Assembly (NCBI GenBank): GCA_021771755.1 | Contig: JAETOL010000014.1 | Location: 4,751-68,750 of the forward strand | Reading direction: 5' to 3' | DNA from: Lachnospiraceae bacterium | Lineage (GTDB): Bacteria > Bacillota > Clostridia > Lachnospirales > Lachnospiraceae | DNA length: 64,000 nucleotides | In this document: positions 9,514 through 61,956 of the stretch, in pieces | Position numbering within the stretch: position 1 is the first letter of the stretch | How the letters are laid out: the number at the start of each line of letters is the position of its first letter | Program-made: the position numbers and the translations under genes | Notes under the pieces: generated by a model | Told to the model about the DNA's origin: nothing | What the model saw: the letters and a program-made list of their open reading frames with translations, nothing else | Databases searched by the model: none

Positions 9514-9533
9514 AAAAAGCCAGAAATAAAAAA

Positions 9534-9590
9534 ACTCCCGGCAGATATTCCAGCAGACACATCTGCATGTCATTGGAATATGCCGGGAGT
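9534..9590. terminator. Bidirectional terminator (arcC on + strand, BMC operon on - strand)
   Basis: Long stem ACTCCCGGCAGATATTCCA / TGGAATATGCCGGGAGT with an inner GCAGA-CACA-TCTGC hairpin. An A-run lies upstream and CTTTGTTTATTT downstream. Confidence 0.65.
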
Positions 9591-9596
9591 CTTTGT

Positions 9597-9890
9597 TTAT
9601 TTGTTGAAATGATGCTTTTCTGCTTCCTCTTCTACCAGACGTACCGTCTCCTCTGAAGGATTGGAAATTACCGCTGCTGCAATCACCTCACAGGGAGGAT
9701 TGCCCTTGACACTCTCCACAGCAGCTGTCACCGCGGAAACATCACCGCTTAAAAATACAGTGGCATGACCGCCGCATTTTGTATTCCAGGTACGAAAAGC
9801 TACATCAGATGTCTTCAGCATCTGATCGATCACCAGGATGGCATTGCTGCTTCCCAGCACCTCTACCAGTCCAAATGCTCCATATCTCAT
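9597..9890 (-). CDS. BMC-H type microcompartment shell protein (single BMC domain)
   Basis: AFGLVEVLGSSNAILVIDQMLKTSDV...GGHATVFLSGDVSAVTAAVESV aligns by eye to PduA/EutM, including the D-x-x-x-K edge motif. RBS is GTGAGGAAA. Confidence 0.85.
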   Translation of the reverse strand: MRYGAFGLVEVLGSSNAILVIDQMLKTSDVAFRTWNTKCGGHATVFLSGDVSAVTAAVESVKGNPPCEVIAAAVISNPSEETVRLVEEEAEKHHFNK

Positions 9891-9915
9891 AACGATTTCC
9901 TCACTTTATCCAAAA

Positions 9916-10215
9916 TTATTTGTTAATGGTCATTGCAAGCGCAGTCTCCGTATCCTCTGTCGGAGAAGCGATGATGGTGTGACTGACGATCTTTCCAAGA
10001 GGTTTCGCTGTCTCAAGGGCCACCTCCATAGCAGCATTCACATCAGAAACAGAACCTCTTATTTTTACACAGGCACCACTTTTCAGACGGTTACGCTCCA
10101 CACTCTGGATTTTTACATTTGCTGCCTTGGATGCAGCGTCAAGAGCTACAAAGCAGGCAACCAGATTATCCAGTTCAAATACACCGACTGCCATGCCGTT
10201 ATAATTTTCAGTCAT
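9916..10215 (-). CDS. BMC-H type microcompartment shell protein (single BMC domain), paralog 2
   Basis: MAVGVFELDNLVACFVALDAASKAANV...SGACVKIRGSVSDVNAAMEVA aligns to PduA/EutM. ATG 10215 is preceded by GGGAGG; the GTG at 10227 lies inside that RBS. Confidence 0.85.
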   Translation of the reverse strand: MTENYNGMAVGVFELDNLVACFVALDAASKAANVKIQSVERNRLKSGACVKIRGSVSDVNAAMEVALETAKPLGKIVSHTIIASPTEDTETALAMTINK

Positions 10216-10268
10216 AATACCTCCCACTTTTCTTACCAGAAAATTTGTCTATTGTTGTATTTACTACC

Positions 10269-10297
10269 AGTATACCTGTTTTTTGCTAAAAACACAA
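10269..10297 (-). promoter_or_regulatory. Candidate promoter of the two-gene BMC operon
   Basis: On the minus strand: TTGTGT - 17 nt - TATACT, about 55 nt upstream of ATG 10215. Confidence 0.35.
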
Positions 10298-10463: not shown

Positions 10464-11837
10464 ATGAACGTACATCAGACGGACTTTTCCAGAGGAAATG
10501 TATACCGAAACATTCTGGAGGTAGCTGTACCCATGACGCTGGCACAGCTTCTGAACCTCCTTTATAATATCGTAGACCGAATCTATATCGGACGGATTCC
10601 CCAGGCAGGTACAACAGCCCTGACCGGTGTAGGCATCTGTTTTCCCGTGATCACACTGATCACAGCATTTACCTATCTTTTCGGCAACGGAGGCAGTCCT
10701 CTCTGTTCCATGGAACGGGGACGGGGAAACAGCCGCGAGGCAGAGCGGCTTATGGGTAATACTTTTTCCATGCTCCTCCTTACCGGGATTGTTTTGATGC
10801 TTCTTGGATATCTTTTTTACCGCCCGGTTCTCTATGCTTTTGGTGCAAGTGACATTACCTACCCTTATGCAAGAGACTATATCCGCATTTATCTCCTTGG
10901 CACTCTTTTTGTGATGATCACTCTGGGAATGAATCCCTTTATCAACAGCCAGGGATTTGGAAACATGGGAATGCTGACCATCCTGATCGGAGCAGTCCTG
11001 AATATCATTCTGGATCCCCTGTTTATCTTTGTATTCCATATGGGCGTAAAGGGAGCAGCCACCGCAACCGTTCTGTCTCAGATGTGTTCTGCTCTCTGGG
11101 TTCTTAAATTCCTTACCGGAAAAAAGGCTGTCCTGCACCTGAAAAAAGAGGCCATGAAATTAAAATGGAGCCGTGTAAAAAGCATTATGTCTCTTGGAGT
11201 CTCCGGTTTTATGATGGCCTTTACCAACAGTCTGGTACAGATTTTCTGCAACGCTACCCTGCAGACCTGGGGAGGGGATCTTTATGTAGGAATCATGACC
11301 GTGCTGAATTCCATCCGTGAGATCACGACCACTCCCGTTAACGGACTTACAGGCGGCGCTTCACCGGTTATGAGCTTTAATTACGGAGAAAAAGCCTATT
11401 TCCGGGTAAAAAAAGCAATCGGTTTTGTCACCCTGCTCTGTGTTTCCTATACGTTTGCCATATGGGGAATCCTGAAATTATTCCCAGAATTTTTTATCCG
11501 GATTTTCAACAGTGAACCGGATCTGATCGCCAAAGGCACCCCTGCTCTTCATATCTACTTTTTTGGTTTTTGCTTTATGGCTTTACAGTTTGCCGGTCAA
11601 AGTGTATTCGTAGCTCTTGGAAAAGCCAGATATGCTACCTTTTTCTCTATTTTCCGCAAGGTAATCATTGTGGTCCCCCTTACCGTACTGCTGCCCCATA
11701 TTGGAAATCTGGGCGTAGACGGCGTATTCTGGGCGGAACCTGTCTCCAATCTGATCGGAGGCTGTGCCTGCTTTCTGACCATGCTGCTGACCGTTCTTCC
11801 GGAACTGAATCAGAAAAGCAGATCCAGGGCAGACTGA
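10464..11837 (+). CDS. MATE family efflux transporter
   Basis: 12-TM profile and MATE N-terminal signature (ILEVAVPMTLAQLLNLLYNIVDRIYIG). An extended -10 element TGGTATATAAT lies about 35 nt upstream. Confidence 0.85.
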   Translation: MNVHQTDFSRGNVYRNILEVAVPMTLAQLLNLLYNIVDRIYIGRIPQAGTTALTGVGICFPVITLITAFTYLFGNGGSPLCSMERGRGNSREAERLMGNTFSMLLLTGIVLMLLGYLFYRPVLYAFGASDITYPYARDYIRIYLLGTLFVMITLGMNPFINSQGFGNMGMLTILIGAVLNIILDPLFIFVFHMGVKGAATATVLSQMCSALWVLKFLTGKKAVLHLKKEAMKLKWSRVKSIMSLGVSGFMMAFTNSLVQIFCNATLQTWGGDLYVGIMTVLNSIREITTTPVNGLTGGASPVMSFNYGEKAYFRVKKAIGFVTLLCVSYTFAIWGILKLFPEFFIRIFNSEPDLIAKGTPALHIYFFGFCFMALQFAGQSVFVALGKARYATFFSIFRKVIIVVPLTVLLPHIGNLGVDGVFWAEPVSNLIGGCACFLTMLLTVLPELNQKSRSRAD

Positions 11838-11857: not shown

Positions 11858-13207
11858 CTACAGAGGCTGATCCACGTCTGTAAGCTCTTTTTCATTTTCA
11901 ATTTCGTATAAAACCACATCCTCCGGATGGGCATTCAGTACTCTTTTTCCACCCTTGTCCCCGGTAAGCGCCAGCAGGCTCCTGTAATATTTACGACTGA
12001 AAATACAGGGATTTCCCGGCTCACCATTTCTGGAAACGGATGCCATTCCTTTCTCACTTCCCAGAAAGCTGCAGATCAGTCCCTCCAGAGTATCCGCGCT
12101 TAACCAGGGCTGGTCCGCCACCATAAACAGGCAGGCGTCAGCCTCCGGAAGAAGTCCGAGCTTCATAGAGGAAGAAATCCCCTCTTCGGGATGAGGATTT
12201 AATACGGTTTTTATGCCGAGCTTCTCTGCCTCTTCCACAATCTCCGGATACTGGGTAACCACCACAACCGAAGAAATCTGATCCTGCATCTTTTTCCGAG
12301 CCAGAAGCGCCTTATGGAACGCCCTCTGATACATGGGGACCCCTTCAACAGGATACAGAAGCTTGTTTTTTCCGAATCTGCGGCTGTTTCCTGCCGCAAG
12401 GATCACGATTGCCAGTTTCTCCTGTGCCCTGTACTTTAAGCTTCCGCTGACAGCAGAAACCTTTTGTTTTTTCAATTCCTGAATAATCCTGTCTGCTGCT
12501 TTTGGATCCTCCAAAACATCTGCCTTATTCAAAAACACTCGAAATTCCCGGTTTTCCACATTTTTACGAAGTCCGGAAGAAGCAGCTGCGATACTTGCCA
12601 CATCCGCTTCTGTCACTTTTTCCCAAATATCCTTTCCAAGAAATTCTGACATGAATTCCGGTCTGTGGCATGTATCTGCAATCCTTTTCCCCAGACAGTC
12701 CAGACCCGTCACTCCAACAACCAGATCTGTCATTTCCGGAATCACAGGCTCCCACTCTGCAGGAAACTTTAAAGGCAGACGCTTTGCACCGTCTGCCTCA
12801 ATCAGAAGCATATCACACTCTTTTTGAAGCTCCGGAAGCCTTTCTTCAGGAAGTCCCTGTATCTTGCAACAAGAAGCTTCTTCCCCTTCCCTTCCGGTTC
12901 TGACGCCAACAGGACCCGCGTCTGCATTTTTCGTGTTTCTTCCATACCTCTGTTCTACAAAGGATCCCGCTACTGTATATCCTTCTTTTGCGAGATCTTC
13001 CCTGATCTTTTCCAGCTTTCCGTCTCTGGCAAAGGGCCGTTCCGGTTCATAAGCCATATGAGTAGTGGTAGTAACAATCACCTTTTTTCCAAGTGCGACC
13101 AGTTCCTCTGTCAGTCGGAAGATCAGGCTTGTTTTGCCTCCTCCTCCGACAACAGAGATTACCTTATTCTTTTTTATGTCAATATCCAGAAGCTCCAGGA
13201 TACTCAT
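11858..13207 (-). CDS. Fusion protein: YqeC-like selenium-dependent hydroxylase accessory domain + MocA/YgfJ-like molybdenum cofactor nucleotidyltransferase domain
   Basis: The N-terminal half carries the YqeC P-loop (VISVVGGGGKTSLIF ... VTTTTHM). The C-terminal half is MobA/MocA-like (LAIVILAAGNSRRFGKNKLL ... ADQP). ATG 13207 is preceded by GGAGG; the alternative ATG is at 13219. Confidence 0.8.
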   Translation of the reverse strand: MSILELLDIDIKKNKVISVVGGGGKTSLIFRLTEELVALGKKVIVTTTTHMAYEPERPFARDGKLEKIREDLAKEGYTVAGSFVEQRYGRNTKNADAGPVGVRTGREGEEASCCKIQGLPEERLPELQKECDMLLIEADGAKRLPLKFPAEWEPVIPEMTDLVVGVTGLDCLGKRIADTCHRPEFMSEFLGKDIWEKVTEADVASIAAASSGLRKNVENREFRVFLNKADVLEDPKAADRIIQELKKQKVSAVSGSLKYRAQEKLAIVILAAGNSRRFGKNKLLYPVEGVPMYQRAFHKALLARKKMQDQISSVVVVTQYPEIVEEAEKLGIKTVLNPHPEEGISSSMKLGLLPEADACLFMVADQPWLSADTLEGLICSFLGSEKGMASVSRNGEPGNPCIFSRKYYRSLLALTGDKGGKRVLNAHPEDVVLYEIENEKELTDVDQPL

Positions 13208-13233
13208 TTCTGCCTCCATACATCAGCTATAAT

Positions 13234-48331: not shown

Positions 48332-48403
48332 CACACCTGAAGGGAATCGAACCCCCGCACATGGTACCGGAAACCACTGCTCTATCCACTGAGCTACAGG
48401 TGC
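48332..48403 (-). tRNA. tRNA-Arg (anticodon CCG)
   Basis: Hand-folded cloverleaf: GCACCUG UA GCUC-AGUGGAUA-GAGC A GUGGU-UUCCGGU-ACCAU GUGC GGGGG-UUCGAUU-CCCUU CAGGUGU G. No CCA is encoded, and positions 1-72 form a G-U pair. Confidence 0.8.
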
Positions 48404-59601: not shown

Positions 59602-61257
59602 CTAACGGTTATTGATTGCTGTAACAAGCGCATCAATAGAAGCACGGATAATATCCGGGTCCACTCCGGCTCCCCAGGAAAGACTTCCATCTGGTTTCTG
59701 GATACCAACATATGCAATCGCTTTGGAACTGGAGCTTTTTTCTAAAGCATGTTCCTGATAAGTAACCAGATTAAACTTCAATTCGTAGGCTTTTTTCAAA
59801 GCATTGCTGACTGCATTAAGACGTCCATTTCCAACCGCTTCCGTGGTAATCGTTTTTCCATTAAAGCAGGAAGTTACCTGTGTCACAATTCCATCATCTT
59901 TCTGCTGGAAATGCACTTCTTTAATGCTATATGGTTCCTTCACATTCTCAAAGGTCTGTTTAAAGAGACTGAAGATTTCTTCCGGACGCAGTTCTTTATG
60001 ACTGTGGTCAGAAACTGCCTTAGCCACATAACCCATAGCCTCCCGCATTTTTGCCGGAAGATTTAAGCCAAATTTTGTTTCCAGTATATAACCAACACCG
60101 CCTTTTCCGGACTGGCTGTTAATGCGGATCACATCTGCATCGTAATTTCTTCCCACATCGGTAGGATCGATTGGAAGATAAGGCACCGTCCAGCGACCAG
60201 GATCTTTTTCTTCTCTCCAATGCATTCCTTTTGCAATAGCATCCTGATGTGAACCAGAAAAAGCGGCAAATACAAGAGCTCCACTGTACGGACTTCTTTC
60301 GTCCACCTTCATACCGGTACATTCTTCATATACTTCGCAGATATACGGCATATCAGAGAAATCAAGCTCCGGATCCACTCCCTGAGAATACATGTTCATT
60401 GCAAGTGTTACGATATCTACGTTTCCTGTACGTTCTCCATTTCCAAAAAGTGTTCCTTCTACCCTGTCTGCTCCTGCCAGAAGTCCCATTTCAGAATCCG
60501 CCACGCCACAGCCACGGTCATTATGAGGATGCTGAGAAAGAATTACATTTTCTCTGTATTTCATATTTTCACTCATGTATTCTATCTGACTGGCATAAAC
60601 ATGAGGCATGGAAAGCTGTACCGTTACAGGAAGATTGATGATGCATTTATTCTCCGGTGTCGGCTGCCAAACATCAAGTACCGCATTGCATACTTCCAGT
60701 GCATATTCCGGTTCGGTTCCTGTAAAACTTTCAGGACTGTACTCAAACTGGAAATTCCCTTCTGTCTCCTCTGCCAGTTCTTTCAAAAGTTTTGCACCTT
60801 CTACTGCAATCTGAATAATTTCTTCTTTTGATTTTTTAAATACCTGCTCTCTCTGCGCTACCGAAGTAGAATTATATACATGAATAATAGCTTTCGGTGC
60901 ACCCTTTACTGCTTCGAAAGTTTTGCGAATGATATGCTCTCTCGCTTGCGTCAGCACCTGTATCGTTACATCTTCCGGAATCAGATCCTGCTCGATCAAA
61001 GTTCTAAGAAATGTATACTCCGTTTCAGACGCCGCAGGAAAACCTACCTCAATCTCCTTAAAACCAATTTTTACAAGAAGTTTAAAAAACTCAACTTTTT
61101 GTTCCAGACTCATAGGAATCACCAAAGCCTGATTTCCATCTCGAAGATCCACACTGCACCATATCGGCGCTTTGTCTACATACTCCTTTTCTGTCCATTT
61201 CATACATTTGACAGGCGGCATATAATATTGTTTCTGATACTTTGTTACGTTTTTCAT
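59602..61257 (-). CDS. leuA: 2-isopropylmalate synthase (long, LeuA type 2 form)
   Basis: PIWCSVDLRDGNQA, HPHNDRGCGVA, and the C-terminal regulatory domain. ATG 61257 follows GGAGGGAAAGAA; the ORF-track start 61401 was rejected. Confidence 0.9.
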   Translation of the reverse strand: MKNVTKYQKQYYMPPVKCMKWTEKEYVDKAPIWCSVDLRDGNQALVIPMSLEQKVEFFKLLVKIGFKEIEVGFPAASETEYTFLRTLIEQDLIPEDVTIQVLTQAREHIIRKTFEAVKGAPKAIIHVYNSTSVAQREQVFKKSKEEIIQIAVEGAKLLKELAEETEGNFQFEYSPESFTGTEPEYALEVCNAVLDVWQPTPENKCIINLPVTVQLSMPHVYASQIEYMSENMKYRENVILSQHPHNDRGCGVADSEMGLLAGADRVEGTLFGNGERTGNVDIVTLAMNMYSQGVDPELDFSDMPYICEVYEECTGMKVDERSPYSGALVFAAFSGSHQDAIAKGMHWREEKDPGRWTVPYLPIDPTDVGRNYDADVIRINSQSGKGGVGYILETKFGLNLPAKMREAMGYVAKAVSDHSHKELRPEEIFSLFKQTFENVKEPYSIKEVHFQQKDDGIVTQVTSCFNGKTITTEAVGNGRLNAVSNALKKAYELKFNLVTYQEHALEKSSSSKAIAYVGIQKPDGSLSWGAGVDPDIIRASIDALVTAINNR

Positions 61258-61444
61258 TTCTTTCCCTCCGATTTCTGTATGATATGTCTGATTACCTTCC
61301 CACTGTTTTATATACCAGCAATTATCGTTTTTCTGTTTCACAGATTTTTTCTGATATAGAACAAAAAGGATCCTTCCGCTTCCTCGCGAAGCGTTTTTCA
61401 TTCACCAGAAAAGTCACTGCAAAATATACTACTTTTCGAATGAA

Positions 61445-61742
61445 TAAAAAATCTTCCGTCTCTTAAAATTTTTTAATTTAAGAGACGAAAGATCTATTTC
61501 CTCGCGGTACCACTCTTTTTTATGAATAAATTCATACACTCAGCGGATACGGAACACCTGCAAGCCACTGCAGCTCATTCTTATATCCTTTCCATATAAC
61601 GGTGGATCCCGTCTGTGCCTACTTTTCACCAGGAAGTTCAGACAGATGCTCCAAGGGGAGTTCCATAATTTCTTTCCGCTGTCTCTCACCAACCGACAGT
61701 TCTCTGTGCTCCAGTCCTTATGTACTGTTCCTTATCAACGCA
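61445..61742 (-). promoter_or_regulatory. T-box riboswitch leader (presumably Leu-specific) with terminator
   Basis: On the minus strand: AGAGA and GGUGAGA stem-I elements, then the conserved T-box sequence AGAGUGGUACCGCGAGG (plus 61501..61517). The terminator CCGTCTCTTAAA...TTTAAGAGACGG-AAGATTTTTT follows. A TTGACA-17-TAGTCT promoter sits upstream (plus 61772..61800). Confidence 0.7.
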
Positions 61743-61845
61743 TTTATGTATTAAATTGGTTGTTGGATATAGACTAACACGATACCAGCACTTTGTCAAG
61801 AAAAAATAGAGACATATTTTCACAACAGATCCTTTAAAAAATTGT

Positions 61846-61882: not shown

Positions 61883-61956
61883 CGGGGTATGGCGTAGCTT
61901 GGTAGCGCGCGCGGCTGGGGGCCGCGAGGTCGCAGGTTCAAATCCTGTTGCCCCGA
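61883..61956 (+). tRNA. tRNA-Pro (anticodon GGG)
   Basis: Hand-folded cloverleaf: CGGGGUA UG GCGU-AGCUUGGUA-GCGC G CGCGG-CUGGGGG-CCGCG AGGUC GCAGG-UUCAAAU-CCUGU UGCCCCG A. Confidence 0.9.

Follow-up and report, generated by a model that had tools for sequence, protein, structure and literature searches.

Why should two shell-protein genes of a bacterial microcompartment (BMC) lie in the middle of a purine-catabolic gene island? The question is raised by a 64 kb stretch of Lachnospiraceae DNA (contig JAETOL010000014.1, positions 4,751 to 68,750), hereafter called the window, in which two adjacent genes for single-domain, hexamer-type shell proteins (BMC-H), here named BMC-A and BMC-B, are placed between the carbamate kinase gene and the YqeC/YqeB genes. 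On balance, and with modest confidence, the pair is taken to be an autonomous bicistronic satellite shell module of a Lachnospiraceae GRM-type metabolosome. BMC-A and BMC-B would be inserted as minor accessory tiles into a shell whose PduA-type hexamers and BMC-P pentamers have their genes elsewhere in the genome, and would change what passes that shell, by analogy with CcmK3 and CcmK4 of carboxysomes. The pair is tied to no single enzyme set, and its position in the window likely reflects the synteny of the Blautia lineage and not a purine function.

Both proteins cover the entire 75-position model of the BMC domain (PF00936) at about 63 bits and E ~1e-17, where the gathering score is 24.5, and one non-permuted domain in a protein of about 90–100 aa is the BMC-H layout. 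The best solved-structure match for BMC-A by sequence is 6qn1 (E 6e-13). The two proteins are strongly divergent from each other, with a phmmer E of 0.0015 and no alignment at all in a BLASTP comparison of BMC-A against BMC-B, and neither rises above the cut-off of an NCBIfam equivalog (EutM, PduA-type, CsoS1, CcmO, PduT and others). Each carries a D-x-x-x-K edge motif (DAASK and DQMLK), and the pore loops read KSGACV in BMC-A and KCGGHA in BMC-B. Translation of BMC-A from the ATG at 10215 gives 99 aa; with the GTG at 10227 as start codon, the protein would have 103 aa. In the six-frame translation of the window, no third BMC-domain open reading frame (ORF) and no EutN/CcmL-like (BMC-P) ORF was found, with pentamer queries that recovered the Pfam-confirmed PF03319 genes in ten control loci (L071–L080, see below). 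A preliminary description of this locus, made from the sequence alone, had proposed two divergent BMC-H genes of 97 and 100 aa with the edge motif and atypical pore loops, in a window lacking a pentamer, a BMC-T protein and a metabolosome core. All of this is confirmed, two BMC ORFs being the only ones in the six-frame translation, except that the protein given as 100 aa has 99; the 97 aa of BMC-B stand. In the sources consulted, the proteins of the pair appear only as “BMC domain-containing protein”, as “EutM” or similar, or, wrongly, as “CcmL/EutN”, and no published description of this Lachnospiraceae pair was found.

The pair is not peculiar to the window. A profile scan with a BMC-B alignment over one genome per GTDB species gave 80 loci (numbered with an L where they have to be told apart), 70 of them with close BMC-B orthologues of 58–100% identity; the remaining ten, L071–L080, reach 41–49%. 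All 70 belong to Lachnospiraceae or to bins with such contigs, among them Blautia, Oliverpabstia, Diplocloster, Hespellia, Lachnoclostridium and unnamed lineages, and the module is present in at least 70 species of this family. In each of the 69 species loci in which both genes are found, BMC-A comes first and BMC-B follows it directly on the same strand, after a spacer of 12–111 nt, and both reading frames are intact. When BMC-B was searched against 1.84 billion representative proteins, 82 clusters were returned at E <1e-10, many of them fragments, which makes this a small family. Its hallmark is the K-C-G-G-H loop, in place of which the next relatives have K-Y-G-G-L or K-L-G-G-R. No relative of the module turned up in a scan of viral contigs, and it is thus not evidently phage-borne.

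While the two genes stay together, their surroundings change. No neighbouring gene cluster occurs in more than 24 of the 80 loci. Among the 48 loci that have at least 5 kb on each side, with genes counted within 10 kb, 13 have two or more purine-catabolic genes, ten have YqeB/YqeC only (plus MATE and DUF1015 genes), and 25 have neither purine nor maturation genes. Every locus with purine or maturation genes has a BMC-B at least 77% identical to that of the window, which delimits the Blautia clade, and every locus below 77% is without them. Elsewhere, the neighbours include an ECF sigma factor, acylphosphatase, a xanthine/uracil permease, CoaBC, DUF2298, ABC transporters, 5-formyl-tetrahydrofolate cyclo-ligase, GH78/GH106 rhamnosidases, another MatE protein, LysR, SbcC, an HMGL-like enzyme and EPSP synthase. 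Even within Blautia, the island is not constant. In the B. luti/schinkii group, the pair occupies the same site as in the window, with DUF1015, MATE, the pair, MocA/YqeC/YqeB and then a histidine-phosphatase family gene that resembles the one preceding the cobalamin genes of the window, but ygeX, ygeY, ygeW, arcC, xdh, ygfK and ssnA are absent within 10 kb (L008–L017, L040). The purine genes are therefore the variable element around a stable site.

The preliminary description had also seen in the pair a self-contained operon, with a candidate promoter (TTGTGT-17-TATACT) and a strong terminator, and comparison of loci agrees with this, the promoter being a candidate read from the DNA. Its -35 element scores 3/6, below the threshold of a simple promoter scan, which is why such a scan misses it. 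A TTGTnn-17-(G)TATAmT site is found about 60–90 nt ahead of the BMC-A start in most of 17 orthologous loci from unrelated contexts, and a hairpin followed by T residues lies downstream of the pair in most of them; in these 17 loci, sites and hairpins were read by eye and left unscored. In the window, RNA folding gives the terminator hairpin (about 9531–9591) -39 kcal/mol with z = -7.1, none of 200 shuffles being as stable, and a U run follows it; T runs flank the hairpin on both sides. Since the promoter-like site and the hairpin recur across unrelated contexts, the pair behaves as a self-contained unit. The promoter-like site is possibly constitutive. Rfam shows no riboswitch or leader near the pair, and in a k-mer comparison of the intergenic regions of the island, the pair shares only ribosome-binding-site and AT-rich matches, with no common operator-like motif. 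A GTACTAATTAA-like motif lies upstream of ygeX and ygeY and is absent upstream of the pair.

In the classification of Sutter et al. 2021 (PMC8217296), a main locus needs both BMC-H and BMC-P genes, and other loci with shell genes are satellites. Shell genes and no BMC-P are what is found both in the 64 kb window and within 10 kb in the 70 orthologous loci, and under this definition the pair would be classed as a satellite or an incomplete locus. The main locus from which such a satellite might derive is suggested by its relatives. L071–L080 are complete GRM5-like metabolosome loci, a type that handles fucose/rhamnose by way of propanediol, and hold the nearest relatives of the pair outside its own family: BMC-A is closest to a paralogue of about 105 aa in these loci (37–42% identity) and BMC-B to a “KLGGRLVT” paralogue (42–47%). 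A Pfam scan of L071 identifies EutN (PF03319), PduS-like and PduT-like proteins (the latter a BMC-T), three BMC-H genes out of the four in the locus, and a zinc-dependent alcohol dehydrogenase (Zn-ADH) that is extended at its N-terminus. By ORF size and gene order, the locus is also assigned PduL, an aldehyde dehydrogenase, a class II aldolase and a glycyl-radical enzyme with its activase. The main loci occur in the same bacterial family as the pair, and in them, too, the A-like gene precedes the B-like gene. Given the closest paralogues and this shared order, the pair looks like a detached and diverged copy of two minor GRM5-type shell paralogues. The pore loops of the main-locus paralogues are different (a long insertion in one, K-L-G-G-R without Cys or His in the other), and these paralogues sit among a PduA-like protein, EutN, PduS, PduT and enzymes, whereas the pair of the window is detached and has its own promoter-like site.

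A satellite calls for a main locus, with BMC-H and BMC-P, elsewhere in the same genome. The species of locus L036, Ruminococcus sp. 5_1_39BFAA, has the pair in a purine island as in the window (its BMC-B homologue is P0426), and a GRM5 locus is listed for it by Asija et al. 2021. Ravcheev et al. 2019 (PMC6620236) credit the same species with Pdu and Pvm microcompartments, as the columns of their table are interpreted here, and that table contains a run of four adjacent genes taken here to be shell genes. Surveys assign GRM5 to B. wexlerae and B. obeum as well, and the catalogue of Sutter et al. (PMC8217296) types a Blautia entry as PDU1D_GRM5.

A further connection comes from three uncultured Blautia (L018, L019 and L028), in which the pair is next to a convergent gene for a Zn-ADH with the N-terminus MDIKIDEIVKQVLSEI, followed by DUF386. 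The N-terminus of this pair-adjacent enzyme, MDIKIDEIVKQVLSEIDAPSRP, matches that of the Zn-ADH in the main loci (e.g., MDSANIEQIVKQVLKEM), and in both the dehydrogenase domain begins at about residue 65. The N-terminus looks like an encapsulation peptide. In L019, the Zn-ADH is followed by DUF386, an aldolase of the dihydrodipicolinate synthase family, IclR, a GntP permease and an MR/MLE-type dehydratase, a set that would make up a deoxy-sugar-acid route yielding lactaldehyde, a substrate of such compartments. The Zn-ADH and the genes that accompany it beside the pair look like a satellite cargo module that would feed lactaldehyde to a microcompartment. In Diplocloster (L039, L042, L068), the genes immediately downstream of the pair encode GH106-like and GH78 alpha-L-rhamnosidases; this adjacency fits a rhamnose-linked microcompartment but may be coincidence.

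The residues that are kept and lost indicate what kind of shell protein the pair would provide. In 56 unique BMC-A orthologues, K30, E40, R41, R43, L44, G47, A48, C49, R53 and G54 are invariant, N42, V50 and K51 are each found in 55 and K45 in 49, which leaves the basic pore loop E-R-N-R-L-K-S-G-A-C-V-K-x-R-G near-constant. In BMC-B, K26, G40, G41 and H42 are present in all 64 unique orthologues and C39 in 63. K30 and K26 are the edge lysines of the D-x-x-x-K motifs, so that this residue is invariant on both sides of the pair. Where synonymous divergence is not saturated, the ratio of nonsynonymous to synonymous substitution rates (dN/dS) is 0.03–0.12 for BMC-A and 0.04–0.17 for BMC-B, and both genes are under strong purifying selection.

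In major shell proteins, the edge lysine and the arginine of the (I/V)PRPH motif interlock neighbouring hexamers, as is reported from mutagenesis of PduA. The position of this arginine is occupied by Ser or Ala in BMC-A and by Asn, Ala or Gly in BMC-B, and never by Arg. The missing tiling arginine tells against the role of a major facet protein but is no objection to the BMC fold, and in the control loci it is likewise absent from some of the minor paralogues and of the PduT-like domains. Among the GRM5 paralogues, the B-like ones share with BMC-B an Asn at this position, while the A-like ones have lost the arginine in some cases only (L071 keeps IPRP; L079 has Ser and L075 Asn). Because the tiling arginine is absent while the edge lysine is kept, BMC-A and BMC-B would be accessory tiles that depend on PduA-type neighbours and not builders of sheets or tubes on their own.

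The closest precedent is the CcmK3/CcmK4 pair of beta-carboxysomes, for which hetero-hexamers and a tuning of permeability have been documented or proposed (PMC5853843, PMC6788708). There, too, two adjacent BMC-H paralogues lie away from BMC-P and core enzyme genes, apparently under their own regulation, have pore and edge residues unlike those of the major shell protein, and are encoded together, as here in 69 of 69 loci with both genes. The host compartment differs, being a carboxysome in one case and a presumed catabolic GRM-type metabolosome in the other, as do the pore motifs, which here are K-C-G-G-H and R-N-R-L-K-S-G-A-C. With its invariant Cys/His and Arg/Lys pore loops, this conserved two-gene module of abundant human gut bacteria is a compact candidate for studies of accessory tiles in permeability or electron transfer.

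Electron transfer comes in through a bolder version of the same reading, which is rather unlikely. BMC-A and BMC-B could form an obligate hetero-oligomer, a mixed A3B3 hexamer resembling a split PduT, in which three BMC-A subunits would supply the basic half and the three Cys39 residues of BMC-B, with His42, could hold an Fe-S cluster or another metal centre. PduT is described in the titles of PDB entries 3pac and 3n79 as a 4Fe-4S-binding BMC-T, of which a C38S mutant was crystallised; Cys38 is the ligand of its [4Fe-4S] site. In an ungapped alignment, BMC-B Cys39 falls on this cysteine, in the PduT motif TVCPGK/TICPGK, and lies at the equivalent position, at the tip of the beta2-beta3 pore hairpin. 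Against four PduT homologues, BMC-B scores higher on domain 1 (129, 118, 121 and 82) than on domain 2 (93, 82, 83 and 59), and BMC-A higher on domain 2 (100, 80, 91 and 115) than on domain 1 (62, 57, 41 and 49). The edge motifs also correspond, with xSNPS in BMC-B for GNPH and IASPT in BMC-A for IASPD. In contrast to the tandem-domain trimer of PduT, BMC-A and BMC-B are two single-domain proteins, and a three-fold arrangement of cysteines would need the A3B3 stoichiometry; moreover, the His three residues past the Cys of BMC-B is a Lys in PduT.

Two metagenome contigs (L081 and L082) carry in-frame fusions of BMC-A to BMC-B, one with the stop codon replaced and the spacer read through, the other with the spacer deleted. 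An AlphaFold model of such a natural fusion (mean confidence, pLDDT, 75; predicted template-modelling score, pTM, 0.49) shows the beta-alpha-beta-beta-alpha-beta-alpha topology in each half, and single domains from it superpose on CmcA/B/C, CcmK4 and 6qn1 with target-normalised template-modelling (TM) scores of 0.77–0.90 and root-mean-square deviations (rmsd) of 1.2–1.5 Å. The loop between strands 2 and 3 in the B half corresponds to BMC-B residues 38–41. A single-sequence AlphaFold model of BMC-B alone, at pLDDT 54.6, is too poor for use. Together, the PduT-domain preference, the register of C39 and the fusions suggest a shared A/B oligomer. If it exists, a split PduT would be a separately expressed redox or anion gate for Lachnospiraceae metabolosome shells, and in genomes without a pentamer, it could serve as a free-standing redox or metal-binding hexamer.

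Several points weigh against the satellite reading and its extension. Physical linkage to a shell core was never seen, since none of the 70 loci has a BMC-P gene within 10 kb of the pair, and the co-occurrence with a main locus comes from one sister species and from genus-level listings in two surveys. The promoter-like site looks constitutive, and any regulatory tie of the pair to fucose or rhamnose would be hypothetical. For the mixed hexamer, the alignment of the A, B and PduT loops has a one-residue ambiguity in some alignments; in a HMMER alignment to a PduT-derived design with S-R instead of C-P in its loop, the register of C39 is shifted by one residue. The fusions, each on a single contig, may be genuine tandem proteins of a BMC-T-like kind or may result from sequencing errors. 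As a whole, the fusion model matches BMC-T structures poorly (TM ~0.44, rmsd 13–16 Å), and in view of this and of the pTM of 0.49, its domain packing is uninformative.

The absence of a pentamer gene near the pair invites the reading that it needs neither a pentamer nor a main locus and acts as a free-standing hexamer, as stacked hexamers or as a filament, for example in binding or buffering metals or small anions or as a general scaffold. This is possible but doubtful. The operon does look autonomous and possibly constitutive, the invariant Cys/His and Arg/Lys loops would lend themselves to binding a ligand, and many genera retain the module amid varied neighbours. However, the family is confined to Lachnospiraceae, where GRM5-type loci with its closest paralogues occur, at least one pair-bearing species is listed with a full GRM5 locus, and an ADH with an encapsulation-peptide-like N-terminus adjoins the pair in three species. 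The edge lysine used for contacts between hexamers in shells is also invariant.

The reading that the window itself brings to mind, and that the preliminary description raised, is that the proteins build a compartment linked to purine use, or else tubes or sheets serving as scaffold or protection for the adjacent selenium-dependent molybdenum hydroxylases. The purine-catabolic surroundings that it described are real: at the NCBIfam equivalog level, the island encodes YgeX (diaminopropionate ammonia-lyase), YgeY, YgeW, ArcC, YqeC with MocA, YqeB, XdhA with FAD and 2Fe-2S subunits, a selenium-dependent xanthine dehydrogenase (XDH), YgfK and SsnA. In the window and in 13 of the 48 well-flanked loci, the pair lies between ygeW/arcC and yqeC/yqeB/xdh; in ten more Blautia loci, YqeB/YqeC are still adjacent, with xdh not found within 10 kb. 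A xanthine/uracil permease gene is two genes from the pair in L025–L027, and a Cys/His pore could in principle hand electrons to redox enzymes. Yet a purine-linked role is unlikely. The linkage is restricted to the Blautia clade and is missing from all 25 well-flanked loci of more distant Lachnospiraceae, and the comparison supports neither the proposed scaffold nor a conserved association with Se-hydroxylase clusters, for which co-occurrence across genomes had been named as the check. A promoter-like site and a terminator belong to the pair itself, and no operator motif in common with the purine promoters was found; no encapsulation-peptide-like extension was noticed on the island enzymes; and the missing tiling arginine speaks against self-sufficient sheets. 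The 2,8-dioxopurine pathway has been rebuilt in vitro from purified enzymes of E. coli and C. sporogenes, in a paper in which the words shell, compartment and BMC are absent, and the word microcompartment is absent from several papers on the uric-acid gene cluster. The counter-possibility named in the preliminary description, a canonical BMC locus elsewhere that shows no co-regulation with purine genes, stands in part, through the GRM5 listing for Ruminococcus sp. 5_1_39BFAA. For annotators of gut purine clusters, this means that no compartment should be read into the pair's position in the island.

A xanthine-utilisation class of BMC loci, mentioned in the preliminary description, does exist as BUF1/Xau (Axen 2014; Ravcheev 2019, PMC6620236). 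Such loci are described as encoding all the structural proteins of a complete shell, along with a decarboxylase, a formimidoyltransferase, amidohydrolases and ring-opening hydrolases. The likeness to the window is that shell genes occur near xanthine dehydrogenase in anaerobic Firmicutes. However, the window has two BMC-H genes and no complete shell set, beside a YgeW/YgeY/YgeX/SsnA/YgfK pathway, and the linkage is not conserved, 13 of the 48 well-flanked loci having purine genes and 25 having neither these nor maturation genes; membership was rejected, and the locus of the window is not of the BUF1/Xau type.

That the two genes are decaying remnants of a lost microcompartment locus, with no present function, might be read from their small number, the lack of core enzymes and the unrelated island, but it is almost certainly wrong in view of the intact frames in 69 loci, the dN/dS of 0.03–0.17, the invariant pore loops and the promoter, ribosome-binding site and terminator kept in most loci inspected; purifying selection and conservation across genera rule out a pseudogene.

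The features of the operon, together with those of other loci and of the rest of the window, are collected in Table 1.

Table 1. Coordinates of the shell-gene pair, its signals and other features mentioned in the text; positions refer to the window unless a locus number precedes them.
Feature	Position	Strand	Remarks
BMC-A	9916..10215	-	Upstream gene of the pair; 99-aa single-domain BMC-H; PF00936, 63.7 bits, positions 1-75/75
BMC-B	9597..9890	-	Downstream gene of the pair; 97-aa single-domain BMC-H; PF00936, 63.4 bits
Spacer between BMC-A and BMC-B	9891..9915	-	25 nt; holds the BMC-B ribosome-binding site (GTGAGGAAA)
BMC-A ribosome-binding site, GGGAGG	10220..10225	-	4 nt ahead of ATG; GGAGG-type site also in orthologous loci
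Candidate sigma-70-type promoter	10269..10297	-	-35 TTGTGT 10297-10292, 17-nt spacer, -10 TATACT 10274-10269
Bidirectional intrinsic terminator	9524..9591	.	Common to the BMC operon (-) and the convergent carbamate kinase gene (+)
Zn-ADH region	L018:10593-12256		Convergent to the pair
Zn-ADH region	L019:3041-9197		Convergent to the pair
Zn-ADH region	L028:493-2156		Convergent to the pair
BMC-A-BMC-B fusion	L081:2617-3348		243 aa; metagenome contig
BMC-A-BMC-B fusion	L082:26-598		190 aa; metagenome contig
MatE-family transporter	10464-11837	+	Adjoins the pair, divergent
YqeC fused to MocA-like cytidylyltransferase	11858-13219	-	453 aa
tRNA gene	48332-48403	-	
599-aa ORF	59602-61401		Downstream of the T-box leader
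T-box leader	61478-61747	-	130 bits
tRNA gene	61883-61956	+	

Some observations on the neighbours of the pair may be added. In Blautia, a gene for a MatE-family transporter adjoins it in divergent orientation, and a MatE gene also adjoins it, on the same strand, in a distant Lachnospiraceae group (upstream in L054–L056, L060 and L063). Since the two MatE proteins are only about 23% identical and MatE genes are common, the adjacency in both groups is probably due to chance. In L025–L027, the acylphosphatase and xanthine/uracil permease genes lie about 0.4–1.7 kb downstream of the pair, with no other purine gene within 10 kb, while genes for an ECF sigma factor and a putative anti-sigma factor are found on its upstream side.

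The maturation genes show some variation of their own. In the window, YqeC is fused to a MocA-like cytidylyltransferase, while the two are separate genes in L003, L008–L017 and L081, among other Blautia loci. In the B. luti/schinkii group, YqeB, YqeC and MocA, which serve Se/Mo cofactor maturation, are parted from their presumed client enzymes. Within window positions 1–26000, the island has two XDH-type enzymes, SsnA is the sole amidohydrolase-family ORF noticed, and no HyuA-like hydantoinase, a step of the published 2,8-dioxopurine pathway, was noticed. Close homologues are from Blautia, and the remainder of the window holds cobalamin, cell-wall and housekeeping genes, two tRNA genes and a T-box leader upstream of an ORF of 599 aa.

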